The translations under genes were made by a program, and so were the position numbers. Shown one piece after another: positions 10,998 through 63,495 of a DNA stretch of 64,000 nucleotides (position 1 is its first letter; each line of letters starts with the position of its first letter). This DNA is from a virus: the IMG/VR virus record IMGVR_UViG_3300030331_006276. One strand, 5' to 3'. The notes beneath the pieces were generated by a model that worked only from the letters and a program-made list of their open reading frames with translations, searched no databases and was not told the origin of the DNA.

Positions 10998-12245
10998 ATG
11001 GCACTTGCATGCAATATTAAACCGCTTTCTGCTTTTTTATCAACAAATTTAAATAGTAAAATTAAAACTTATGATAATTTAGGAGATCGAATAAAGAGGT
11101 CTTTAGGATTTCCATTAGTTAGTTTAGAGATACATACTGATCAACTTAGACAAAATATACAATTAGCTGTTGAATATTATACAAAATACGCAGGCTATAC
11201 TAGAGAGTTTTTAATATTTGATTCTAATATGTATGAAACTAATAAAGGTATAAGATTAGATTTTTTATATACGCTTGCAAATGAAAATCTTGATACAAAG
11301 CGACAAAAAACAGATGGTACAAATCCTTTAGGACCCGGTGCGGAGTTTTATGGCTCACAATCTCCAACTATATTAAGTGGTGGTAATCAAAGTACAGGAC
11401 CAGCTCCTGGCGCTGGAGGTAATTTTGCACGTACAAATGCTTCAGTATTTGTTGCAATGTCAACTTTAAGTGCTGGTGCATTTACTGACTCAGTTCAATT
11501 ATCTTCAACCTTTGCTTATACAACAGCTGGAAGAGGCCCGGGTATACAAGCATTTGAGGTTTTTGATCGATCATTATATCAAGATATAACTTCATATAGA
11601 CCAACATTATCGTCGTTTTTTAAAGCTACACCTAAGCAAACAATAACTTTTGAAGGTAAAGATACAGATGGTTATTATTATCAAAATGTATTTGATTATG
11701 ATGTAATGGAATACAGAAAAGTCGTCGATGTTATTGATTTTGAAGAAGGTTCAACAACTGGCATTAATACTTTATTTACATTAGAACAAACACTTGCACA
11801 ACAAACATACTTTAGCTATGCACTTGGTAATTATGGTTTTGATTTAGTATCATGGTATACGCTTAAAAACTGGATTGATACAAGAGAAAAATTATTAGCA
11901 ATACGTAGAGATGTTAAATTTGATCCTAGAACGCAATACATGCAAATGTATCCACAACCAGGTAGTGATAGATTTTATGGTATAATAGGTTGTTATCTTG
12001 AAAAACCTATACGAGATGTTATTATGGAGCAATGGGTCTATGAATATGCATTAGCCTTAAGTATGATAACTATAGGACGTGTTAGAGGAAAGTTTGGTAA
12101 CGTACAATTACTCGGTGGAGGAGCATTAAATTATGATATGCTTCAAGAAGGCATAGGAAGAAAAGCAGAATTGGAAGGTAAATTATTAGAAGGTGCTTCA
12201 CCAGGCTTCGGCGATACGGAACCTCCAATGTTTTTTGTAGGATGA
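10998..12245 (+). CDS. gp13: Neck protein (T4 gp13-like)
   Basis: IKRSLGFPLVSLEI...QNIQLAVEYY, WVYEYALAL...GRVRGKFGNVQLLGGGALN, PPMFFVG C-terminus. Confidence 0.75.
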   Translation: MALACNIKPLSAFLSTNLNSKIKTYDNLGDRIKRSLGFPLVSLEIHTDQLRQNIQLAVEYYTKYAGYTREFLIFDSNMYETNKGIRLDFLYTLANENLDTKRQKTDGTNPLGPGAEFYGSQSPTILSGGNQSTGPAPGAGGNFARTNASVFVAMSTLSAGAFTDSVQLSSTFAYTTAGRGPGIQAFEVFDRSLYQDITSYRPTLSSFFKATPKQTITFEGKDTDGYYYQNVFDYDVMEYRKVVDVIDFEEGSTTGINTLFTLEQTLAQQTYFSYALGNYGFDLVSWYTLKNWIDTREKLLAIRRDVKFDPRTQYMQMYPQPGSDRFYGIIGCYLEKPIRDVIMEQWVYEYALALSMITIGRVRGKFGNVQLLGGGALNYDMLQEGIGRKAELEGKLLEGASPGFGDTEPPMFFVG

Positions 12246-38701: not shown

Positions 38702-39477
38702 TAAACATATTTAATCGGTATGCCTGATCTCTCAACAAATCCTCGTTGTTTGATATATGATGAGCTTGAAACTGCTAGATCGGCGCGTTTATCAGCAATA
38801 GGTCCAACTCGTGGCATATTTGGATTACCGTAAAAATGATAAACATACAATATATCACTAATATGTTTAACAGCAGAATAATCACCATCTCTTTGTCTTA
38901 GTTTATATAATAATGGTAAAATATAAGCGTGGTCAGTTCCCATTTGAAACCATTTATTATCATGATCTAAAAAATTAGCTTTAGGAATTGATAAAAGAGC
39001 TTTTACTTTAAAGGTTGACATATGGCTAGTAATCCAATCATCTTTATATGGATCCCAATCTTTTGAAGGTATAGATTTCGAAATACCAGGTTTATCATCA
39101 CTAGATAATCTATAGTTTGAATAAACGTATTCTAATTTTGGATTTTCATCATATGTCTTTTTTACAATAGATAGAGCGTCTTTTTTAGCTAACCAATCAT
39201 CACTATCAACTGCGCAAATAATATCTTCCGGATCTTTACTACAAGCATGATCAACAATATTTTTTAATCTATAATTTCGTGTTTCATTTTGAATTATTTT
39301 AATATATGAATTGCGATCTTTACACTTGTTTAATATATCTACAGTTTCTTGATCCGACATATCATCAACGATTATATGACTATCAGGTTGTAGCGTTTGT
39401 CTTTCAACGCTATCGATACAATTTAGAAGAAATGGACCGGGATTTCTCCCTGGAGATATAACATGTATCTTACTCAT
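38701..39477 (-). CDS. Glycosyltransferase family 2
   Basis: CIDSVERQT...IIVDDMSD...CAVDSDDW (DxD). Confidence 0.8.
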   Translation of the reverse strand: MSKIHVISPGRNPGPFLLNCIDSVERQTLQPDSHIIVDDMSDQETVDILNKCKDRNSYIKIIQNETRNYRLKNIVDHACSKDPEDIICAVDSDDWLAKKDALSIVKKTYDENPKLEYVYSNYRLSSDDKPGISKSIPSKDWDPYKDDWITSHMSTFKVKALLSIPKANFLDHDNKWFQMGTDHAYILPLLYKLRQRDGDYSAVKHISDILYVYHFYGNPNMPRVGPIADKRADLAVSSSSYIKQRGFVERSGIPIKYV

Positions 39478-40403
39478 TATTGTTTAGGAGTCTTAATATG
39501 AGGTACATCAACCATACTTAAAGTATGATGCATAAGTCTTTCATGTGATACTCTTTCAGGGTTAATATCAAGACCACCTCTACGAGCATATAGACAACGA
39601 ACAGCTAATTCATCAGGACTAATTGTATCCATAAGCCTTTTATAAATAGCTTCACAAATTTCTTCATGAAAATGACATTCATCTCTAAATGAAACGATAT
39701 ATTGCAATAACGAGATAGGATCAACAGTATTTTTACCTTTCATATAGATATAAACATCACCCCAATCAGGTTGCGAAGTTACCCTACAGTTTGACTTTAG
39801 CAATGAACTATGATAATAAACCTCTTCAGAAGGTGCATCTTCAATCTCTACTAGTAAATCAGGATCTTCTTGATATACAGAAAACTCAATATCTTCTACA
39901 GGATAATCATCTTCAAGAGTAATATACTTAGGGTGATTCCATTCTGCCTTAGCAGAAAAAATATTCGTATCACTAAGAACGTATTCGTTAGAATGAACTT
40001 TAACTTGAACTTCTGTTTCTAGATATTTACTTAAATCACTAGCAGCGCGCTTACTAATTTCTTGTCTAACTTCTTCAGCAGTATCGCCAAGTTTAGTCAT
40101 ATTAAAAGAGTTAAAATATAACTTAATAGATTTAGACTCAACAATATATTTACTAGAGCAAGGATAAACGCATTTAGCAACTCCTGTTACAGGAAGACCG
40201 TGATTAGTTAAAGCAGATACTTCATACGCATTCCAAGTATCATAACCTAAGAAAGGTAGTTGATCGTCATCAATATTAAGATGAGTTCTATTAGACTGAC
40301 GAGGCTCTCTAACTAAGAGTTTAGGATCGTAAGTAGATTTATATTTAGAAATAGCACCTAGATGCTTACTAATATTACTATTATCAAGAATTGCGTTAGC
40401 CAT
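39477..40403 (-). CDS. queF: NADPH-dependent 7-cyano-7-deazaguanine reductase (bimodular QueF)
   Basis: QueF motif VESKSIKLYFNSFN; catalytic SNCRVTSQPDWG; FHEEICE; YARRGGLDINP. Start adjusted to MANAILD. Confidence 0.92.
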   Translation of the reverse strand: MANAILDNSNISKHLGAISKYKSTYDPKLLVREPRQSNRTHLNIDDDQLPFLGYDTWNAYEVSALTNHGLPVTGVAKCVYPCSSKYIVESKSIKLYFNSFNMTKLGDTAEEVRQEISKRAASDLSKYLETEVQVKVHSNEYVLSDTNIFSAKAEWNHPKYITLEDDYPVEDIEFSVYQEDPDLLVEIEDAPSEEVYYHSSLLKSNCRVTSQPDWGDVYIYMKGKNTVDPISLLQYIVSFRDECHFHEEICEAIYKRLMDTISPDELAVRCLYARRGGLDINPERVSHERLMHHTLSMVDVPHIKTPKQ

Positions 40404-40404
40404 A

Positions 40405-41001
40405 TTAAATTTTAATATCAAGGTTTAGTTTATCAAGAGTACTCTTAATAGTTTCTAATCTTTCTTTAACAGAACCTTCCAAGTATACTACTCGAGGTCC
40501 TTTCTCAATAATACTATACTGCAAGTACATATCAAAAAGACCAATAATATCTTCTCTAAAATGCTTATCGATACTTCTTTCTCCATCATCTACTAACTCA
40601 ACATCATCAGGACTAGTATAAAAAATAACATCATACTCGTTCCTAAGCTTTCTATAGATAAGATCACATGCATCGTAAGTAGTTCTATTTATCTTTCCTT
40701 TATCTAAAAGATAATGACTATAAACTATACCGTCTAAAGCGCATCTATCTAATATTTTATTAACACTTCTTATTAAATTATCCGTTCTACCTTTATAGAT
40801 ATTACGAATATGCTCAGTCATAATTAACATCTGAGTCATATCATCCCCACCTTCATTAATAGGAACTTCGTATTCACGCTTTACTAATCTAGTTACTTCG
40901 GGAATAAATTCAAAAGAATGACTACCTAAATTTTTACACTTTAAATGCTCAAGTAAAGTAGTTTTACCCGTACTTTGAGCTCCAGTAAACGAAAAGATCA
41001 T
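40405..41001 (-). CDS. P-loop nucleotide/nucleoside kinase (AAA_28-like)
   Basis: FTGAQSTGKTT Walker A; ILDRCALDG; YDVIFY. Confidence 0.75.
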   Translation of the reverse strand: MIFSFTGAQSTGKTTLLEHLKCKNLGSHSFEFIPEVTRLVKREYEVPINEGGDDMTQMLIMTEHIRNIYKGRTDNLIRSVNKILDRCALDGIVYSHYLLDKGKINRTTYDACDLIYRKLRNEYDVIFYTSPDDVELVDDGERSIDKHFREDIIGLFDMYLQYSIIEKGPRVVYLEGSVKERLETIKSTLDKLNLDIKI

Positions 41002-41561
41002 ATAGTATTATATAAACGTTCCTTTAAAAAACTATACCAAGCATTTAATGATGTTTTTCTTAATGCATTGTACGTATCATCTAACGTTAAAATACTAGCA
41101 GTTGAAGTCTCACATACTGTCTCTACATTACCGGCATCTACTTCTTCTACAACTTTATGAACTACACTACCAACTTTATAGTACTTATGAAGATCGTCCC
41201 ACGCTCTTTTCTGCGGATCTTTTCCTTTTAGTTCTGGATACTTAGTAATAAGACCTGGATGACCATTATAGATATTATATCTTTCGCATTTATCTGGAGG
41301 GACTATTCTTAACCAACCATTAAGAGTTATAATAGTAGGTTCTATATCATCTACTACTTCGTCTAAAATATCTAAAGTTTTACTATCTTTACCAAAAGTA
41401 GTAAGCCATTTATATTCAACTCCTTTCAATATATTTTGAATTTTGCTAGGATGATTATTCGAAATAATTAAATCAGGTTTTCGTTGTATCTGTTCAGATA
41501 TATCTATGATCTCTTGACCAGTTTGAGAAAACAATGCTATCCATTTATTATATTTTTTCAT
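40998..41561 (-). CDS. PurN-like formyltransferase (candidate DpdN)
   Basis: ALFSQTG, LNGWLRIV, YNGHPGL (NxHP), GSVVHKVVEEVDAG (HxV..xDxG). Confidence 0.75.
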   Translation of the reverse strand: MKKYNKWIALFSQTGQEIIDISEQIQRKPDLIISNNHPSKIQNILKGVEYKWLTTFGKDSKTLDILDEVVDDIEPTIITLNGWLRIVPPDKCERYNIYNGHPGLITKYPELKGKDPQKRAWDDLHKYYKVGSVVHKVVEEVDAGNVETVCETSTASILTLDDTYNALRKTSLNAWYSFLKERLYNTI

Positions 41562-42163: not shown

Positions 42164-42183
42164 GGTCTTTATTAAATAATTTT

Positions 42184-42465
42184 GTGGATGATTTTTTTAA
42201 ATTAGTTACCGAGGTAGGCTTTCCAATAGCTGGCGCTGTTGTATGTGGAACTTTTGTATTTATTATTCTTAAATTTATACTTAGTGAGATAACAAGCTCA
42301 GTTAAAGGCCTTGGTGGAATGATAAAATCATTAGAAAATAGAGTACAAACTATGAATAATGATATAGTTAAAATAGATACATTAGTTTCTTATGCTTTTA
42401 ATAAACACCCTAATTTAGATAGATTAGCTGCAAATGAAGGAAAGGAGGACGCAAGGAAAGACTAA
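42184..42465 (+). CDS. Small membrane protein A (GFP-TM-coiled coil)
   Basis: EVGFPIAGAVVCGTFVFIIL TM followed by MNNDIVKIDT coiled coil. TAAATA 5 nt before the GTG. Confidence 0.7.
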   Translation: MDDFFKLVTEVGFPIAGAVVCGTFVFIILKFILSEITSSVKGLGGMIKSLENRVQTMNNDIVKIDTLVSYAFNKHPNLDRLAANEGKEDARKD

Positions 42466-42752
42466 TGACAGAAACAATAGTAAAACTTATAAATGATTTT
42501 GGATTTCCAATATTCGCTGCTTTTGGTTTAGGTTATTTCGTTTATTATACATGGAATTGGGTAGTAAAAGAAATTAAACCTGTATTAGAAGAATCTACTG
42601 GAACACTTATAGGCTTAATAGATAGGATAAGAATGTTAGATAATGATATGATTAGACTTAATACAAAAATACAGATGATTCTCCAGGAAAAAGAGCAAAT
42701 AGAAAAAGAAAATTTAAAAAGAAATAGACGTATTTTGGATACAAAGCTCTAG
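42465..42752 (+). CDS. Small membrane protein B, paralog of A
   Basis: DFGFPIFAAFGLGYFVYY TM followed by LDNDMIRLNT. ATG overlaps the upstream stop. Confidence 0.7.
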   Translation: MTETIVKLINDFGFPIFAAFGLGYFVYYTWNWVVKEIKPVLEESTGTLIGLIDRIRMLDNDMIRLNTKIQMILQEKEQIEKENLKRNRRILDTKL

Positions 42753-42782
42753 CAATATATATTAATGTAGGTAAATAGTGTT

Positions 42783-43256
42783 ATGAAATATATTTTATTG
42801 TTATTTCTTTTTTGTAGCAGCGCTTTAGCTGATCAATTAACGTTTAAGTTTAAGTCACCTTCGTTTAATGGTATCGGCTATAGCTCGCATAAAATTAATT
42901 TAGAGAATATTTCAGCTGCTAGAAAAAAGACTATAAAAGATGAAATTCGGTCATTACAGATTCAAGCTAATCTAGCTGCACAAAGAACTCCTTTGAATGT
43001 TTTTATGACTAATCTTCAGTCACGAATTTATTCAGAGCTTTCTAAGCAAGTTACTGAGCAGTTATTTGCTGATACGGGTTCAGATTCTGGTTCATTTGAT
43101 TTAGATGGGAATACTATTTCATGGTATAGAATTTCAAATCAAATTAATTTAACCGTTACAGATACTGACGGTGACATTACTGAAATTTTGATTCCAATAG
43201 GATCGCTCTTACTGCCAGAGCCTACAACTAATGAAGAAACTACTACTACTGACTAG
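42783..43256 (+). CDS. csgF: Curli assembly CsgF-like protein
   Basis: Signal peptide, then LTFKFKSPSFNG...LQSRIYSELS...GSFDLDGNTI. Adjacent to csgG. Confidence 0.7.
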   Translation: MKYILLLFLFCSSALADQLTFKFKSPSFNGIGYSSHKINLENISAARKKTIKDEIRSLQIQANLAAQRTPLNVFMTNLQSRIYSELSKQVTEQLFADTGSDSGSFDLDGNTISWYRISNQINLTVTDTDGDITEILIPIGSLLLPEPTTNEETTTTD

Positions 43257-44028
43257 CTTAAGCTTATTGCTTTTAGGTGGTTGTAGTACTTTTCAAAATG
43301 GTCCAGATCAGCTTCCTATAGTAGCGCCTACTCCTCTTAATATAGAGCTAAATGAATTACCTATATTAGATGGTGATCCTATATATGTTGGAGTATCAGA
43401 TTTTAAAGACCTTACTGGTCAACGTAAACAATCAGATAATTACGCGAGTTTTTCTTCTGCTGTTACTCAAGGAGCAGAAGCATGGTTAATTGAATCTTTA
43501 TTAGAAACTGGTGATTGGTTTAAAGTTTTAGAGAGAGGTCAACTTGATAGTATTATGCGTGAACGCGCAGTAGTACAACAAACTAGAGAAGATTTTACTG
43601 ATGATGATGAAACGGGACTTAAACCTATGCTTTTCGCTGGGCTACTTATTCATGGTGGTATTATTGGATACGATACTAACTATGTTACTGGTGGTGTTGG
43701 AGCTTCATATTTAGGATTAGGAGCAGCTGAACAACATAGAAAAGATGTAGTAACTGTTTCTATAAGATTTGTTAGTACTTTAACAAGTGAAATTTTATTA
43801 TCTTCAACAGTATCTAAAACTATATATTCTACTTCATTAGGTAGCGATGTATTTAAATATGTTAAAAATGATATTAATCCGCTTGAAATAGAGTATGGAT
43901 TTGCAAAAAATGAAATGGTCTCAGTAGCTACTAGAGCAGCTATAGATTTAGCTATTATTAATTTAATTAATAAAGGCGAAGAAAAGGGTATGTGGAAATT
44001 TATAAATACCCCAGCAGAAGATAATTAA
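43231..44028 (+). CDS. csgG: Curli secretion channel CsgG-like lipoprotein
   Basis: Lipobox LGGC; FKDLTGQRK...SSAVTQGAEAWL...WFKVLER...ERAVV...GGIIGYDTN...DVVTVSIR. Confidence 0.88.
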   Translation: MKKLLLLTSLSLLLLGGCSTFQNGPDQLPIVAPTPLNIELNELPILDGDPIYVGVSDFKDLTGQRKQSDNYASFSSAVTQGAEAWLIESLLETGDWFKVLERGQLDSIMRERAVVQQTREDFTDDDETGLKPMLFAGLLIHGGIIGYDTNYVTGGVGASYLGLGAAEQHRKDVVTVSIRFVSTLTSEILLSSTVSKTIYSTSLGSDVFKYVKNDINPLEIEYGFAKNEMVSVATRAAIDLAIINLINKGEEKGMWKFINTPAEDN

Positions 44029-44055
44029 ATTACTGTTTTTTTAATAAATACTTTT

Positions 44056-44835
44056 ATGAAAACAAAAGTATTCCTTTTTAGTATACTTGCTTCAGCAGGC
44101 TTAACTCTGGGTAGTAATGAAATCTATTTAGATCAAGTTGGAAGTGCAGGTATTTTTAATATATCGCAAATTGGTTCTTCTAATAAATTAGGTGAAGGAA
44201 CTAATAGATCACGAATTGAAGGTGAAGAAGTTGTATTTAATGTTGCAACTATTGGTAATCAAAACTTAGTAGATATTGATTCTATTGGTAATGAAGAAGA
44301 AGTAAATCTTCAAGTTGAAGGTGATGCTAATGAATTTGTATTAGCTTTAGAAGGAGATCAAAATACTGTAAATGCTTTTGTAGCTGGTGATTCTAATAAT
44401 GTATTGATTGCTGGTAATCAAGAAGATACACAAAAAGCTACTGTTAATAATGGATTAATTAATTTAAATGTTGAAGGATCTACAAATGATGTTGAGTTGC
44501 TTTTATTTGATACTTCATATACCTTTACTGATTATTTTATAGGTGGTTCTTTAAATACTATTAGCTCATATCAAGAAGGTCACGGAGGTCTAATTGGTCA
44601 CTCTCAATTAGTTGATGTTTTCGGAAGTAGTAATAATTTATTAGTATCGCAAGTAGGTTCCGAAAGTCAATTCTTAGAACTTTCAATCTTAGGTAATGAA
44701 AACAATTATCAAATATTCCAAACTGATGGAGCGTTTGACCCAACATTTATGCCTGAGCAAACTGGCAACTCTGTTACTCCTGTTAATGAGTTCTCTAATC
44801 CAGATGGTCCCCCTCAGGGCAACGTTAATCCTTAG
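44056..44835 (+). CDS. Curlin-like secreted repeat protein
   Basis: Signal peptide, NEIYLDQVGS, and repeated xGxxNxxxxxxx units (GNQN, GDAN, GDQN, GDSN, GSTN, GSLN, GSSN, GNEN). TAAATA 5 nt before the ATG. Confidence 0.65.
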   Translation: MKTKVFLFSILASAGLTLGSNEIYLDQVGSAGIFNISQIGSSNKLGEGTNRSRIEGEEVVFNVATIGNQNLVDIDSIGNEEEVNLQVEGDANEFVLALEGDQNTVNAFVAGDSNNVLIAGNQEDTQKATVNNGLINLNVEGSTNDVELLLFDTSYTFTDYFIGGSLNTISSYQEGHGGLIGHSQLVDVFGSSNNLLVSQVGSESQFLELSILGNENNYQIFQTDGAFDPTFMPEQTGNSVTPVNEFSNPDGPPQGNVNP

Positions 44836-45724
44836 TATACTTTGTTTATTTGTTAGTACTAGTTTAGCTAAAGTTGGTAACGTAACTGCTCAAACAAGAG
44901 CAGCTCAGATCACCCGTAAAGGTGATAAGATTTTAACGGAAGTTGATACTCCTGTTGAAATGCGCGATCTTATACAGACGTTAAAAGGTAGAACTGATAT
45001 TAAATTTGTAGACGATACTAAGGTAAGTGTTACTGAATACTCTAAGCTTATTATAGATGAGTTTGTTTATAATCCGGAAAAGAAAACTGGTAAATTATCT
45101 CTTAAGGCTGCTTTAGGTACTATAAGATATTCTTCAGGTAAAATAGCTAGAAACTCTGGACAAAATGTAAAGATAAAATCTCCTACTGCATCAGTTTCGG
45201 TTAGAGGTACAGATTTTACTATGAATGTTCAAGAAGATGGAGCAAGTAGTTTTATACTTTTACCATCAGTAGATGACTCTGGTAAAAGTTATGTAGGTTC
45301 AATTGATGTATCTACTCTGGGAGGCAAGGTTACTTTAAATCAAGCTTATCAAGCTACTACAGTAACTACTGCTATTGCTCCTCCTACTCCACCTCAAATT
45401 ATAAAACAAGACGGACCAGGAGAGCCTAAGAAAAAAGATAATGTTGATAACGAAAATAACGCAGTAGAAAATGAAAATGAAGATAAAGAAAAAGATGATT
45501 TTGACGATATAAAAATTAAAAGAAAAGAAAAACAAATAATGAATACGTTTTTAAAAATGGAAGATGGTAGATATGTTTTCTTCTCTAAAGATAAAGATAA
45601 TATGATATCATTAATTGTTGAAGATGGTAGTAATGTTACTGTTAATTATGATAATAAAGGTAGTGTTATAAACGCTAAGTTTAATTCTGGTAACAACGTT
45701 CAATTTAATATAAAACAGCAATGA
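44804..45724 (+). CDS. FecR-domain protein
   Basis: IKFVDDTKVSV...IDEFVYNP...SPTASVSVRGTDF. Likely start MVPLR (44804) gives a signal/TM segment; track start is 44696. Confidence 0.8.
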   Translation: MVPLRATLILSILCLFVSTSLAKVGNVTAQTRAAQITRKGDKILTEVDTPVEMRDLIQTLKGRTDIKFVDDTKVSVTEYSKLIIDEFVYNPEKKTGKLSLKAALGTIRYSSGKIARNSGQNVKIKSPTASVSVRGTDFTMNVQEDGASSFILLPSVDDSGKSYVGSIDVSTLGGKVTLNQAYQATTVTTAIAPPTPPQIIKQDGPGEPKKKDNVDNENNAVENENEDKEKDDFDDIKIKRKEKQIMNTFLKMEDGRYVFFSKDKDNMISLIVEDGSNVTVNYDNKGSVINAKFNSGNNVQFNIKQQ

Positions 45725-47778
45725 AATTTTTTAATATTAACAACTATGCTATATGCTTAGTTATAACAGTACTTTTAGCTTGTATAAGAATTCTTGATCC
45801 GTTTTTTATAGAAACTGCAAGACTAAAAGGTTTAGATTATTATCAAAATAAACAAGATAAAGTAAAATCTGAAAATATAGCTATTATAGAAATAGACGAA
45901 GATAGTTTAGATGAATATGGACAATGGCCTTGGAAACGAGATTTAATAGCTCAAGGTATTATAAAAGCTTATGAAAGTGGAGCTCAATTAGTTGTAGTGC
46001 CTATATTATTTGCAGAAAAAGATAGACTAGGCGGTGATCAAGAGCTTATAGACTTGCTTGCTGAAGCTCCGGTGATTATAGGTCAATCAGCAAGTACTAA
46101 AGGTAAAGGTGAACCTGTACCTAGAGGGTTAGCTACCATAGGTGAAAGTTTAGATGGTTGGTTGTATGACTATCCAGAAGCAATTGGCCCTGTAAAAGAA
46201 CTCGGTGAAGTAGCCGCGGGAGTAGGAATGATATTAACAGCTCCTGAACTCGATGGAGTAGTTAGAAGAATGCCTTTAGTTATTCAAATTAAAGGAGAAG
46301 CTTATCCAACTATACCTTTAGAAGTTATAAGGTTATTTGCTGGTGAACAGTCTTATCAAGCTAAGGTAAATTTAGCAGGGGTAGAAGCTATAAGAGTACC
46401 AGGTTTTGATCCTATAGTAACTGATGAAAACTCTAGAGTATGGATTAATTTTAAATATGAATTTGACAAAGTTTCATTTAAAGATGCTGATTGGTCAGCT
46501 GTGCAAGATAAGATAGCTATAATAGGTTTAACAGGAGAGGGTTTAGCAAATACTATAGCTACTTCTACAGGTATAAGTTATGGACATGAAGTTAATAGTC
46601 ATGCTTTACAAATGATTATAGATGAATCACGATTAGTTAGACCTGCTGAAGCTAAATTATTTGAAGTTGTAATTACTGCTGCTTTTTGCTCTCTTCTTAT
46701 ATTGGGAGCACTATTTTTATCATATAAATTTAGCTTTATAATTATAGTTCTTTCTTTAGCTGCTGGTCCTATAGCAGGAAATATTTTATTTGATAAACAT
46801 GGATGGTTAATCGATTATACTTGGCCTTTTGCTTGTATTTTTATAGTATGGTCATGCGCTACTTTTCTTCGTTATATAGCTGAAAGTAAAAGTAAAAAAT
46901 TGATTAAAAAGCAATTTGAACATTATCTTGCTCCTCCTATAGTAAAGCTTCTACAAAAAGATCCTTCGCAACTTAAACTAGGAGGCGATACTAGAGAGCT
47001 TTCTATACTCTTTAGTGATCTAAGAGGATTCACTACTATTAGTGAACATTTTAAATCTAATCCGCAAGGTTTAACTGAGTTAGTTAATAGATATTTAACA
47101 CCCATGACCGGTTGTGTAATCGACTATCAAGGTACAGTAGATAAATTTATTGGAGATGCTTTAATGGCTTTTTGGAACGCGCCTTTAGATATAAAGGATC
47201 ATAGAATTCATTCTATTCGATGTGGATTAAAAATGTTTGATCTATTAGCTGAACTTAATCGTGAAGTAATGAATGAAGGTATTAGCGAGCTAAAAATTGG
47301 AGTAGGTATTAATACAGGTGATGTTGTAGTTGGTAATATGGGTTCAGAGCAAAGATTTGATTATACTTGTTTAGGTGATGCAGTTAATTTATCATCTAGA
47401 TTAGAAGGCCAAACTAAAGAGTATAGAGTAGGTTTAATAGTAGGTGAAAATACTACATTAGGAATTACTTCTGTTTTTAATTTTGTTGAATTAGATAAAA
47501 TAGCAGTTAAAGGTAAAAAAGAAGGTATAAAAATATTTACAGTACTAAATGATACGGGATTAGCAGCTCATGGAGGCAATCCAAAAAAGCATAATATGTT
47601 TTTAGAATTATATAGATCACGTAAATGGAAATTAGCTTTAGAAAAAGCTAATGAAAATAAAAAAACTTATCCTGAATTAGTAGACTATTATGATATGATG
47701 ATTGAAAGGATAGAGCATCTTAAATTAGATGACCCTGGCAAAGATTGGGATACAATCTTTAGAGCTACTTCGAAATGA
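45721..47778 (+). CDS. CHASE2-domain class III adenylyl cyclase
   Basis: IIEIDEDSL..YGQWPWKR (CHASE2); three TMs; FSDLRGFT, VDKFIGDALMAFW, GINTG, RFDYTCLGDAVNLSSRLE. Confidence 0.92.
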   Translation: MKFFNINNYAICLVITVLLACIRILDPFFIETARLKGLDYYQNKQDKVKSENIAIIEIDEDSLDEYGQWPWKRDLIAQGIIKAYESGAQLVVVPILFAEKDRLGGDQELIDLLAEAPVIIGQSASTKGKGEPVPRGLATIGESLDGWLYDYPEAIGPVKELGEVAAGVGMILTAPELDGVVRRMPLVIQIKGEAYPTIPLEVIRLFAGEQSYQAKVNLAGVEAIRVPGFDPIVTDENSRVWINFKYEFDKVSFKDADWSAVQDKIAIIGLTGEGLANTIATSTGISYGHEVNSHALQMIIDESRLVRPAEAKLFEVVITAAFCSLLILGALFLSYKFSFIIIVLSLAAGPIAGNILFDKHGWLIDYTWPFACIFIVWSCATFLRYIAESKSKKLIKKQFEHYLAPPIVKLLQKDPSQLKLGGDTRELSILFSDLRGFTTISEHFKSNPQGLTELVNRYLTPMTGCVIDYQGTVDKFIGDALMAFWNAPLDIKDHRIHSIRCGLKMFDLLAELNREVMNEGISELKIGVGINTGDVVVGNMGSEQRFDYTCLGDAVNLSSRLEGQTKEYRVGLIVGENTTLGITSVFNFVELDKIAVKGKKEGIKIFTVLNDTGLAAHGGNPKKHNMFLELYRSRKWKLALEKANENKKTYPELVDYYDMMIERIEHLKLDDPGKDWDTIFRATSK

Positions 47779-47943: not shown

Positions 47944-48756
47944 TTAATCTAAAAGAAGCTTTTTAAACTCAGAAGTATTATATAGAATATCTGCTCGCTG
48001 CTCTGCAGTAGCTTCAACTTTAATAAGATCAGCTAATAACACAGAAGGTTTATCTACTAAGCCAATACCTTTAAGATATCGTTCCCCAACAATACCAGCA
48101 ACTACAGGGTTAGAAGTATCTAAAGATCTTATACCTTTAATCCATTTATAATCTTTAAACTCACATGCTAGAGAACAACCAAGTAAATGATGAGGCTTAT
48201 TATAATTCCATACACCATCTTCAGTAAGCATTTTAATAAGACGCCTTCTACCTTTATATTGCCTATGTAATATTTGTTGTTTATAACTATAACGAGATCC
48301 AGAAACTAAAGAAGCAACTCCTTGATACCATGAATAGTCAAAAGAGATAGCAATATAATCAGCATTTTCATTCATATACTTATAACAATCAACTATTTCT
48401 TGATAGGTAGTACCTTGTACAACACCTATTTTTAAACCAGGTAGATCAGGATAGTTAAGACAAAACTTATGAAAAGAAGATATGGTAGCTTGACTATCTT
48501 CTAATACATCAGGCACTACATAATAAGTAGGTTTAAGCTCTTCAACATACTCAGCAAATTTTTTAGAATCGAAGGCCTTTCCAAGCTCAAAGATAGAGTT
48601 ATCAAGCAATACCTCTCTACCAAGAGTTAAAGAAACTTTAAAGAAGTTGTAATACTCAGGATATTTTTCAAATAGATGAACTAAAGCATAATCATAATCG
48701 TTATAATTACGCGATTCATCTAACATCGAAATAGGAGATTCATGACTTACTAGCAT
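47944..48756 (-). CDS. TGT-fold protein, DpdA (DpdA3)-like
   Basis: LLDNSIFE, VPDVLED, GVVQG, HHLLG and RSLDTS parallel the TGT D-S-G, VQG, H-x-LG and D-S/T motifs. Confidence 0.6.
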   Translation of the reverse strand: MLVSHESPISMLDESRNYNDYDYALVHLFEKYPEYYNFFKVSLTLGREVLLDNSIFELGKAFDSKKFAEYVEELKPTYYVVPDVLEDSQATISSFHKFCLNYPDLPGLKIGVVQGTTYQEIVDCYKYMNENADYIAISFDYSWYQGVASLVSGSRYSYKQQILHRQYKGRRRLIKMLTEDGVWNYNKPHHLLGCSLACEFKDYKWIKGIRSLDTSNPVVAGIVGERYLKGIGLVDKPSVLLADLIKVEATAEQRADILYNTSEFKKLLLD

Positions 48757-56588: not shown

Positions 56589-57329
56589 TTATTTATTAAA
56601 AGCTGCTTGTAATGCACTTTTTATTCGATCTTCTGCACGAGAATCTACATCATCTTTTCTACCTGGAGAAATTTCTCTATGTGTAGTTACGGTTGATAAA
56701 TCTTTAGGCCATCCCCATTTTTCAAATCTTGGTACTAACCACTCAATAGCTGAAGCAACTTCATCATCAGTTAATTCCCTTGTATTAGTATTACCGCTAA
56801 ATGATAACCCAAGTAAAAAACCATTACAATTAGTTCTACCATTAAAATTAGATTTACCTGCGTGCCAACATCTACGATCATCATCAGCAAAAATTGTTCT
56901 TTCTCCATTTGTATCTATAATGCAATGGTATGATACTTGTGACTTAGATTGACATATCCAGCTTACTGACCCAGCATAAGAACCAGATGAATGATGTAGT
57001 ACAACTCCTTCAGGTCTAATTTTAGAGGAAGAAATATTAGGTGAGGGTTTACTTACTTCTGGATACGATCCATCAACAGCACTCGAGGTAATTTCTACAA
57101 CAGCAGGTTTTTCAGTTAACCCTAGTGCTTCTAAAATAGTATTTGCTGTATTGGGTCCATAAGCTCCATCTACTAAAGAATCTGTTTTCTTTTGAATTAT
57201 TTTTGTTAATTCTTCTTTTGTAAAATTTAATTTACTAATAATTTTTGTAGCGGTATTTTTACCATACACACCATCTGCTGTCGCTCCAACAGCTTCTTGA
57301 ATTTTTTTTGTTGTATCTTTAAGTGCCAT
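56589..57329 (-). CDS. N-acetylmuramoyl-L-alanine amidase (Amidase_2) with PG-binding repeats; endolysin
   Basis: DGVYGKNT/DGAYGPNT repeats; VVLHHS, VSYHCII, CWHAG, HREISPGRK.D. Confidence 0.85.
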   Translation of the reverse strand: MALKDTTKKIQEAVGATADGVYGKNTATKIISKLNFTKEELTKIIQKKTDSLVDGAYGPNTANTILEALGLTEKPAVVEITSSAVDGSYPEVSKPSPNISSSKIRPEGVVLHHSSGSYAGSVSWICQSKSQVSYHCIIDTNGERTIFADDDRRCWHAGKSNFNGRTNCNGFLLGLSFSGNTNTRELTDDEVASAIEWLVPRFEKWGWPKDLSTVTTHREISPGRKDDVDSRAEDRIKSALQAAFNK

Positions 57330-62688: not shown

Positions 62689-63495
62689 TTATTTACTAGC
62701 AAGTATACCAGCATTACGCTCCATTCTCTTTACTACACCATCTCTCCCTTTTGCTTTTCTTCTTTTATATTCTTTATGATCAAGATATTCATTAGCTGCA
62801 GCTTTGTTTTTACCTTTTTTAAGTAAATCTACCCATTGCATTTTAGGGAGTAAATCACCTCGATAACTAATATCAACCAATACTGCTGCTTGCTCGTTAC
62901 TTAAATTATCAATTTCAAATATATCTTTAACTCTATCTAAATGAAAAGAGAGTTGCTTATCAAATAGCTTTTCTGCAAATTGTGGAGATATAGAACTACC
63001 ATACTTTTTTACCCACTTATTTTTAGCTGCTCTTGTACCATCACCAATTTTATGACCAATACCTATAGTATAAATACCCACATCATCTGTATAAGGTCTT
63101 AAAAATTTTCTATTTCTAGGGTCTCCTATATCTGTACCATAAATTTCAGACGGCTTGATTAAATTACTAGCTAAATTTTTTATCTTACTTTCCGATCTTT
63201 CTGGAGGTGCCTCTTGAATTTTACGGTTAGGTTTAACCTTAACAGGTTCAGGCGGTGTATCTTCTATCTGTTTAAGTTCAGCTTCATACTGTTTAAACAC
63301 CCTATCTACTGCTCTTTTAAAACTCGGAGCTTCAATATGTTCATCAGCTACTTTTAACGCGGTTATTTTTTGCTCAATTGGAGCTGGATCGTTATTAAGA
63401 ATATTTTCGATCTTTTGAGCCGAATAAGGAGCAGTACCTACTGCAATAAGTCCAAGAAGAATCTCTTTCATACCTTCATCAAATTGTTGAGTCAC
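62689..63495 (-). CDS. GH24 (T4-type) lysozyme with long N-terminal extension
   Basis: PYTDDVGIYTIGIGH, QAAVLVDISYRG, AAANEYLD, KRMERNA. GTG start 5 nt after TAAATA; the track start overlaps the tmRNA. Confidence 0.75.
   Translation of the reverse strand: MTQQFDEGMKEILLGLIAVGTAPYSAQKIENILNNDPAPIEQKITALKVADEHIEAPSFKRAVDRVFKQYEAELKQIEDTPPEPVKVKPNRKIQEAPPERSESKIKNLASNLIKPSEIYGTDIGDPRNRKFLRPYTDDVGIYTIGIGHKIGDGTRAAKNKWVKKYGSSISPQFAEKLFDKQLSFHLDRVKDIFEIDNLSNEQAAVLVDISYRGDLLPKMQWVDLLKKGKNKAAANEYLDHKEYKRRKAKGRDGVVKRMERNAGILASK

Follow-up and report, generated by a model that had tools for sequence, protein, structure and literature searches.

Curli-type secretion genes are already known from pelagiphages. 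Zaragoza-Solas et al. (2020) reported a csgF/csgG operon in pelagimyophages and proposed 'sibling capture' as its role (PMC7029224), Buchholz et al. (2022) proposed a lysis-timing pore for the Methylophilales phage Melnitz (PMC9004378), and a 2022 mSystems paper described the block in both podo- and myo-pelagiphages, in the order one or two 'histidine kinases', CsgF, CsgG, CsgA/B, FecR, sometimes a second CsgA/B, and adenylate cyclase (PMC9599517). In the latter study the block was reported without CsgE, was expressed in metatranscriptomes, showed near 1:1 gene ratios and was detected at all 65 ocean virome stations; CHASE2 is never mentioned. SAR11 bacteria and their phages are among the most abundant marine biological entities and the block is widespread, so that knowledge of its function would show what these phages do to the surface, aggregation or lysis of a streamlined host that gains a secretion channel, a fibre and a second-messenger enzyme. 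Here we analyse such a block in an uncultured T4-like phage of SAR11 type, the virus record IMGVR_UViG_3300030331_006276 of IMG/VR (64,000 nucleotides (nt), the whole stretch being referred to as the window). Judged by its gene families and their order, the block is one more example of the viral type VIII secretion system (T8SS; curli) region of pelagiphages described in 2020-2022, with homologous CsgF, CsgG, curlin-repeat, FecR and cyclase genes side by side. On balance, we consider it probable, by a modest measure, that it would encode a late curli-type secretion unit together with a FecR/CHASE2 sensor pair borrowed from bacterial adhesin-secretion loci.

A first-pass annotation made from the nucleotide sequence had described seven contiguous genes and, correctly, mentioned csgF/csgG clusters in SAR11 myophages (PMC7029224). 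Seven intact plus-strand open reading frames (ORFs) were found at 42184-47778 with minus-strand genes on either side, and their predicted identities agreed with Pfam and PHROG profile matches, by which protein families were assigned, and with PDB matches. The tight, mostly overlapping packing was also confirmed, with four overlaps (1, 26, 32 and 4 nt) and two short gaps (30 and 27 nt). A co-occurrence survey, set beforehand as a check on the block as a unit, covered 88 IMG/VR loci (the 80 best of at least 585 CsgG-profile matches plus eight from a single-protein search, a non-random set), with presence scored using the window proteins and only where the flank of a locus was long enough. The genes held together as a unit: CsgF was upstream of CsgG in 82 of 82 loci, FecR lay within 3 kb downstream of CsgG in 69 of 69, and a cyclase was present within 8 kb in 44 of 44. 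The compact form seen in the window, with no gap between FecR and cyclase, occurred in 8 of 61 loci; elsewhere 0.4-5.4 kb were inserted, often including a second repeat protein. The nearest isolates, Melnitz (MZ577097, 50118-56876) and Pelagibacter phage HTVC008M (KC465899, 7562-13807), have the same gene order and share with the window the gene families, the host group and the lack of CsgE; the window copy differs from these isolates in being compact, with FecR abutting the cyclase, and in having no second curlin-repeat gene. Relative to the published annotation (PMC9599517), both the 'histidine kinase' label and the missing CHASE2 assignment are revised below.

The components of the putative secretion channel were recognised as follows. 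The CsgF homologue (ORF3; 42783..43256, plus strand), which would cap the CsgG channel or act as its adaptor, has 157 amino acids and a signal peptide, and matched Pfam CsgF over profile positions 5-132 of 132 (2.1e-17; 63.9 bits against a cut-off of 25.8). Its mature N-terminus, LTFKFKSPSFNG, aligned with MTFQFRNPNFGG of E. coli in a BLASTP comparison with E. coli CsgF; this N-terminal motif is the part of CsgF that inserts into CsgG. A phmmer search against the CsgF chains in the PDB gave no match. The CsgG homologue (ORF4; 43231..44028, plus strand), a lipoprotein of 265 amino acids, matched Pfam CsgG with 160.5 bits (4.4e-47; cut-off 20.8) and aligned through residues 2-260, in effect its full length, with the solved E. 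coli CsgG (3x2r, 1.6e-39). Its lipobox, LLGGC, was included in the alignment with E. coli CsgG, and a match to NCBIfam CsgG (3e-42) fell under the equivalog cut-off. In the constriction loop, formed in E. coli by Tyr51, Asn55 and Phe56, only the Phe is positionally conserved and the Tyr and Asn positions differ; the phage loop, SDNYASF, has a one-residue insertion, yet contains Asn, Tyr and Phe. The first-pass annotation had seen no CsgE, and none was found among the Pfam matches of the module proteins or, with PF10627, in five related phage records, the E. coli control being positive. The likeness to the E. coli CsgBAC/CsgDEFG system thus comprises a full-length CsgG with lipobox, the CsgF N-terminal motif and a secreted Gln/Asn/Gly-rich protein predicted to form a beta-solenoid. 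The phage module differs in lacking CsgE, CsgC and CsgD, in its constriction loop, in a longer (about nine rungs) and much more divergent fibre protein, and in the addition of a FecR-fold protein and a CHASE2 cyclase.

The putative fibre protein is encoded directly downstream of csgG (ORF5; 44056..44835, plus strand, 259 amino acids). It has a signal peptide and GxxN motifs every ~22-27 residues. An AlphaFold2 (AF2) model computed with 25 viral homologues (predicted local distance difference test score (pLDDT) 81.8) is an all-beta regular solenoid of about nine rungs. Structural comparison with VIA-align returned beta-helix matches with Z up to 16, and the model aligned with the E. coli CsgA fibril (8enq) over 111 of 111 residues with a Z of 12.7, but with a root-mean-square deviation (rmsd) of 8.6. 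Because the VIA-align matches are generic beta-helices, the fold alone cannot separate a curlin from other solenoids; Foldseek retrieved no PDB structure for the model at E <= 0.001. Pfam Curlin_rpt was matched by 17 of the 26 aligned members of the ORF5 family (best 4.2e-8), and hhalign against E. coli CsgA gave a probability of 30%. By family membership rather than by its own score, ORF5 is a divergent curlin-type protein. The window copy taken by itself matched no family and gave no match to Curlin_rpt at E <= 1.

ORF6 was listed from position 44696 (342 amino acids), but its true start is most likely 44804 (MVPLRATL...), because a signal peptide begins there, as do the PHROG and homologue alignments. 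The resulting secreted protein of 306 amino acids (44804..45724, plus strand) matched Pfam FecR (PF04773) with 36.5 bits against a cut-off of 24 (6.9e-9). In an AF2 model computed with 28 homologues (pLDDT 81.9) it consists of a beta domain (residues 21-200), a disordered charged linker (204-245), longer and acidic in most homologues, and a small C-terminal beta domain (246-305). In VIA-align comparisons the first domain matched the cell-surface signalling domain of PupR (6ovk, Z 15.4) and a Bacteroidetes anti-sigma periplasmic domain (4m0n, Z 14.2), and residues 21-115 superposed on the RIN domain (5ix9) with a Z of 10.7 over 73 of 76 residues and an rmsd of 2.1, the next unrelated match having a Z of 5.2. 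The C-terminal domain gave only Ig-like matches (Z 3-4). RIN serves the MpIBP adhesin as its periplasmic retention ('plug') domain (PMC5550230). In both the PupR and the RIN contexts the fold sits at the periplasmic face of an outer-membrane protein, which offers an analogy for CsgG rather than evidence of contact with it.

A cleavable signal peptide alone precedes the FecR domain of ORF6, with no N-terminal anti-sigma domain, and neither a sigma factor (FecI) nor a TonB-dependent receptor (FecA) was found among the module genes. On domain content, ORF6 shares the FecR domain, not the FecIRA system, which corrects the annotation 'iron regulator FecR' now in circulation. A further comparison is that with LapA/MpIBP-type adhesins (5ix9; PMC5550230; bioRxiv 10.1101/198937). 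The first sub-domain of the phage protein superposes on RIN, a similarity between a predicted model and one nuclear magnetic resonance structure; both have a folded periplasmic domain followed by a long disordered linker and a further domain, and in bacterial relatives the FecR domain forms the N-terminal part of RTX adhesins. The phage protein differs in being small and having a Sec signal peptide, its channel would be CsgG and not a TolC-like pore, and the phage has no LapG/LapD-type protease or receptor for cyclic di-GMP. ORF6 (44804-45724) also gave a weak match (1.4e-6, far under the cut-off) to the NCBIfam model of the Leptospira surface adhesin Lsa33, also a FecR-domain protein with an adhesin annotation. 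The conserved C-terminal end of the FecR proteins ('...G..N.I.I.Q') was considered as a curlin-like repeat and ruled out, hhalign of the FecR family against the repeat family giving a probability of 2.8%.

The last gene (ORF7; 45721..47778, plus strand, 685 amino acids) encodes a CHASE2 class IIIb adenylate cyclase (Pfam CHASE2 3.4e-36, Guanylate_cyc 5.3e-21), arranged as a transmembrane (TM) helix, a periplasmic CHASE2 domain, a TM bundle, a cytoplasmic cyclase domain and a conserved C-terminal tail. The CHASE2 match (125.6 bits) covers residues 16-328, and TM helices lie at 4-32, 316-334 and 369-387. Matches to solved cyclases ranged from 2.5e-38 to 1.9e-30, the closest being adenylate cyclases and the Cya2 scaffold. 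The catalytic set is complete: metal-binding D433 and D479, K475, T549, and the transition-state residues N556 and R560. Of the motifs named in the first-pass annotation, Lys475, the metal residues Asp433 and Asp479, Asn556 and Arg560 were upheld, but Asp547 of RFDYT is not the partner of the Lys; Thr549 takes that place. DKFVGD and DYT of Pseudomonas aeruginosa CyaB align with the K475/T549 region, and on this alignment the adenine-specifying pair is Lys475/Thr549, as in class IIIb. ORF7 thus looks catalytically competent and is predicted to make cyclic AMP (cAMP). It is 40-41% identical to the cyclases of the isolates Melnitz and HTVC008M and up to 92% identical to metagenomic copies; the protein collection held more than 6,800 related cyclases at E <= 1e-10, with close homologues on contigs of up to 297 kb.

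The pairing of FecR with a CHASE2 protein has precedents in bacteria. FecR-domain genes neighbouring CHASE2 genes have been published for Campylobacterota (PMC9239204), for the Burkholderia BiofilmReg CHASE2 kinase operon (PMC5192318) and for cyaD1-smc02177 of S. meliloti (PMC5498481), and the outer-membrane barrel NsrA feeds CHASE2 cyclases in the pathway NsrA, CyaD1/D2/K, cAMP, Clr (PMC13001267). We surveyed the 80 best bacterial relatives of the phage cyclase, mostly from Alphaproteobacteria and 29-37% identical over the whole length. A hidden Markov model (HMM) of the phage FecR family matched at 30 of these 80 CHASE2-cyclase loci, in 20 of them within 400 nt, mostly upstream and on the same strand; HMMs for CsgG, CsgF, the repeat protein and the small membrane proteins matched at none of the 80. 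No CsgG at all was present in four of the five genomes examined from this set. The order FecR then CHASE2 cyclase was confirmed by Pfam in loci L161 and L158 (Sulfurimonas and Devosiaceae genomes); in the Sulfurimonas locus a TPR protein lies 5' of the pair and a 1591-residue FG-GAP/cadherin protein 3' of it. On this evidence, the genes for FecR and the CHASE2 cyclase form a pair in bacteria, where they occur without curli genes. This bacterial pair resembles the phage arrangement in that the FecR gene is directly beside, and usually upstream of, the CHASE2 gene, and differs from it in lacking nearby curli genes and in that FecR often heads a giant cadherin/RTX adhesin.

These adhesins, 1200-2000 amino acids long, carry FecR as the N-terminal domain, ahead of cadherin-like, Big_9, VWA and RTX domains, and directly adjoin CHASE2 cyclases in Bradyrhizobium, Methylobacterium, Tardiphaga and Roseobacter (loci L093, L099, L101, L102, L104:3688-7833 and L117:3526-7734). 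In the marine alphaproteobacterial single amplified genome AG-337-E20 (L103:4080-18193 and L172:4735-7668) the CHASE2 cyclase lies inside a type I secretion locus, with a C39 ABC exporter, an HlyD protein with an N-terminal cyclic nucleotide monophosphate (cNMP)-binding domain, the cyclase and a 145-residue cNMP-binding protein. The opposite strand encodes HlyD, an ABC protein and a 977-residue RTX protein with an N-terminal match to the phage FecR HMM (1e-19). The spacing of cNMP genes seen in L103 recurs in at least 10 relatives, and this arrangement suggests cAMP-controlled adhesin secretion at L103-type loci. A limited literature search found no paper linking FecR with adhesin retention modules. 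What the present survey adds is the pairing of FecR adhesins with CHASE2 and with nearby cAMP-binding proteins, which turns 'regulatory genes next to curli' into specific questions of binding and cAMP output; it is this link to adhesins and retention modules that holds the remaining interest of the locus, since it makes the function testable.

Expression of the module late in infection is suggested by a short upstream signal. The first-pass annotation had noted three TAAATA-N5 sites as late promoters, and all three were present on the plus strand, each 5 nt 5' of a start codon: at 42173..42178 (reading TTAAATA) before the GTG of ORF1, at 42772..42777 (GTAAATA) before the ATG of csgF, and at 44045..44050 (ATAAATA) before the ATG of the repeat protein. 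Among the 94 long ORFs of the whole window, 13 had TAAATA exactly 5 nt 5' of their first start codon and other offsets were almost empty. Among the carriers are genes for a head maturation protease and for an adaptor-like protein, as well as two endolysin-like genes; the core with its fixed spacing is strongly non-random and, because of these carriers, marks a class of structural and lysis genes, so that the three module sites can be read as late-type signals. The T4-type late promoter has TATAAATA at -13 to -6 as its -10 element. This full consensus was under-represented in the window (9 observed, 17.75 expected) and is therefore useless as a search pattern, whereas the shorter core with fixed spacing is informative. 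If TAAATA were a T4-type -10 element, transcription would start on or right beside the start codon and many late mRNAs would be leaderless or nearly so. Sigma-70 promoters and terminators within the module were no commoner than in shuffled sequence. Other long ORFs of the window with this signal include those at 10998, 12695, 16148, 48805 and 58571 on the plus strand and at 63495, 62677, 62289 and 57329 on the minus strand, among which are the two endolysin/amidase-like genes (PHROG lysis families; 56589-57329 and 62689-63495, both minus strand), ~9 and 15 kb from the module.

Taking these data together, the reading that we favour runs as follows. Late in infection the host, which according to the literature reportedly has no curli genes, would gain a CsgG-CsgF pore exporting a curlin-like fibre subunit. 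Its two remaining parts, the FecR-fold protein and the cyclase, would be a sensor pair taken over from Alphaproteobacteria, where the FecR domain is either free-standing or heads giant secreted adhesins beside the cyclase. In the phage pair the periplasmic FecR-fold protein would inform CHASE2 about the condition of the exported fibre or of its channel, and the cyclase would turn the CHASE2 signal into cytoplasmic cAMP. The first-pass annotation had gone further and proposed a complete relay from pore and curlin through FecR and CHASE2 to cAMP. Its FecR-CHASE2 link is borne out by the comparative data, which give good backing to that half of the relay only; 'complete circuit' is an overstatement, because nothing in the data examined here links CsgG or curlin to FecR and no cAMP receiver was found. 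Outside-to-inside signalling is plausible by analogy and unproven.

Several observations weigh against the favoured reading. In line with the first-pass annotation, which saw no cAMP effector in the window, searches of the window, of Melnitz, of HTVC008M and of three related contigs yielded no cNMP-binding protein. The bacterial loci contrast with this, since 13 of the 80 have cNMP-binding genes (CRP-like, EAL, SulP-STAS and HlyD fusions) no farther than 8 kb from the cyclase, whereas the phage has a short stand-alone FecR and no effector. SAR11 is reported to have little transcriptional regulation (PMC11102524), and expression of the sensor late in infection leaves little time for a transcriptional response. 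The missing Curlin_rpt match of ORF5 itself points the same way, as does the report that no clumping was seen in Melnitz-infected cells (PMC9004378). Finally, in the cyclase alignment (L001:10566-12614) the Melnitz clade has Asp at the 549 position and Ser for Asn556, where the window clade has Thr and Asn; with the transition-state Asn replaced by Ser in the Melnitz clade, catalysis may not be equally important across lineages. A separate observation concerns the viral fragment UViG_3300021963_008368 (L020:510-1196, minus strand), which encodes a membrane-anchored cNMP_binding protein (Pfam 7.9e-18) divergently from csgF. Three homologues of this protein occur in other viral fragments without adjoining the module, these fragments being 4-11% complete.

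A more specific version of the favoured reading, which we advance tentatively, treats the FecR-fold protein as a retention-module-like reporter, with FecR plus CHASE2 as a general, hitherto undescribed bacterial device for sensing a secreted fibre or adhesin in place that pelagiphages re-wired to curli. The folded N-terminal FecR domain would remain on the periplasmic side, below the outer-membrane channel, the linker and C-terminal domain would engage or thread CsgG or the fibre, and CHASE2 would read this engagement. In bacteria, secretion components that bind cAMP, for instance the cNMP-HlyD fusion in L103, might be among the outputs, and pelagiphages would have switched the device from type I adhesins to curli, so sensing the surface state of the infected cell.

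A rather doubtful alternative is that the operon combines two jobs, with fibres serving for aggregation ('sibling capture') or as a superinfection shield while the cyclase separately raises host cAMP as a metabolic take-over gene and senses no fibre. Fibre hypotheses of this kind have been published (PMC7029224, PMC9599517), and a separate cyclase would fit both the presence of the FecR-cyclase pair in bacteria without curli and the variable distance (0-5.4 kb, with genes inserted) between the two genes among phages. Such independence is harder to reconcile with the invariable co-occurrence of the cyclase (44/44) across phages whose CsgG is only 42-50% identical to that of the window. Moreover, the bacterial FecR domain is physically part of secreted adhesins adjoining the cyclase, which suggests that surface protein and cyclase are functionally connected, and the lack of clumping with Melnitz (PMC9004378) counts against this alternative too.

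The two small membrane proteins at the head of the module bear on a second alternative, the lysis timing proposed for Melnitz (PMC9004378). ORF1 (42184..42465, plus strand, 93 amino acids, GTG start) and ORF2 (42465..42752, plus strand, 95 amino acids) are considered paralogues because both match phrog_18771 (1e-27 and 2.7e-30); they are 23% identical in the family alignment, and neither matched a Pfam family. ORF1 has its TM helix near the N-terminus (residues 15-33), followed by a coiled-coil and a charged C-terminus, and the family as a whole (81-132 amino acids) shares this layout of a single TM helix, coiled-coil and charged tail. We ruled out the published 'histidine kinase' label on account of this small size, the lack of a conserved His (ORF2 has zero histidines and no alignment column holds a conserved one) and the lack of any match to HisKA, HATPase_c or HAMP at E <= 1 among 23 members. 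ORF2 weakly matched a holin PHROG (0.0068), and the nearest Atlas cluster is automatically named 'holin family'. Members of the family were found in 23 of 30 fully flanked viral loci, sometimes downstream of the other genes or between csgF and csgG; they look like frequent accessories of the module, holin-like in appearance, for which a holin-like role is only a lead.

If lysis timing were the function, CsgG, with or without CsgF, would be a gated outer-membrane hole that together with ORF1 and ORF2 helps to open or depolarise the envelope as infection ends, the cyclase and FecR setting the time. We regard this as unlikely. The holin-like build (short N-terminus, one TM helix, charged C-terminus), the weak PHROG match and the Atlas name, the late signal common to the module and the endolysin-like genes, and the absence of the CsgE gate all speak for it. 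The holin evidence is weak, however, and the TM pair is missing in 7 of the 30 fully flanked loci; the endolysin-like genes are ~9 and 15 kb off; an outer-membrane pore alone cannot depolarise the cell because the outer membrane is not the energised membrane; and a pore-only role would leave the conserved CsgF, the curlin-type protein and FecR (69/69) unexplained.

It is very improbable that the module is an uptake channel, in which an ungated CsgG would admit nutrients, cofactors or iron complexes to the periplasm with FecR as an iron-related regulator: this was suggested in PMC7029224 and PMC9599517 and would suit the absence of the CsgE gate, but ORF6 has only the FecR beta domain and a signal peptide with no cytoplasmic anti-sigma part, the module has no FecI or FecA, the bacterial partner of the FecR domain is CHASE2 and not an iron transporter, and the curlin-type protein would be left unexplained. 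We likewise give very little credence to a cyclase product other than cAMP (cGMP, or cCMP/cUMP as in Pycsar) with a role in defence or counter-defence, since the match of PADLOC PycC models to the catalytic domain (best 1.3e-25) reflects the generic class III fold, whereas among solved structures adenylate cyclases and the Cya2 scaffold come closest, Lys475/Thr549 is the adenine pair of class IIIb enzymes such as P. aeruginosa CyaB, and no Pycsar-type effector or cNMP-binding gene was found.

The minus-strand neighbours of the module (39477-41561 and 47944-48756 in the window) resemble a 7-deazaguanine gene set into which the curli module is inserted. These flanking genes comprise QueF-like, P-loop kinase-like and formyltransferase-like genes, and a tgt/DpdA-like gene lies downstream of the module.

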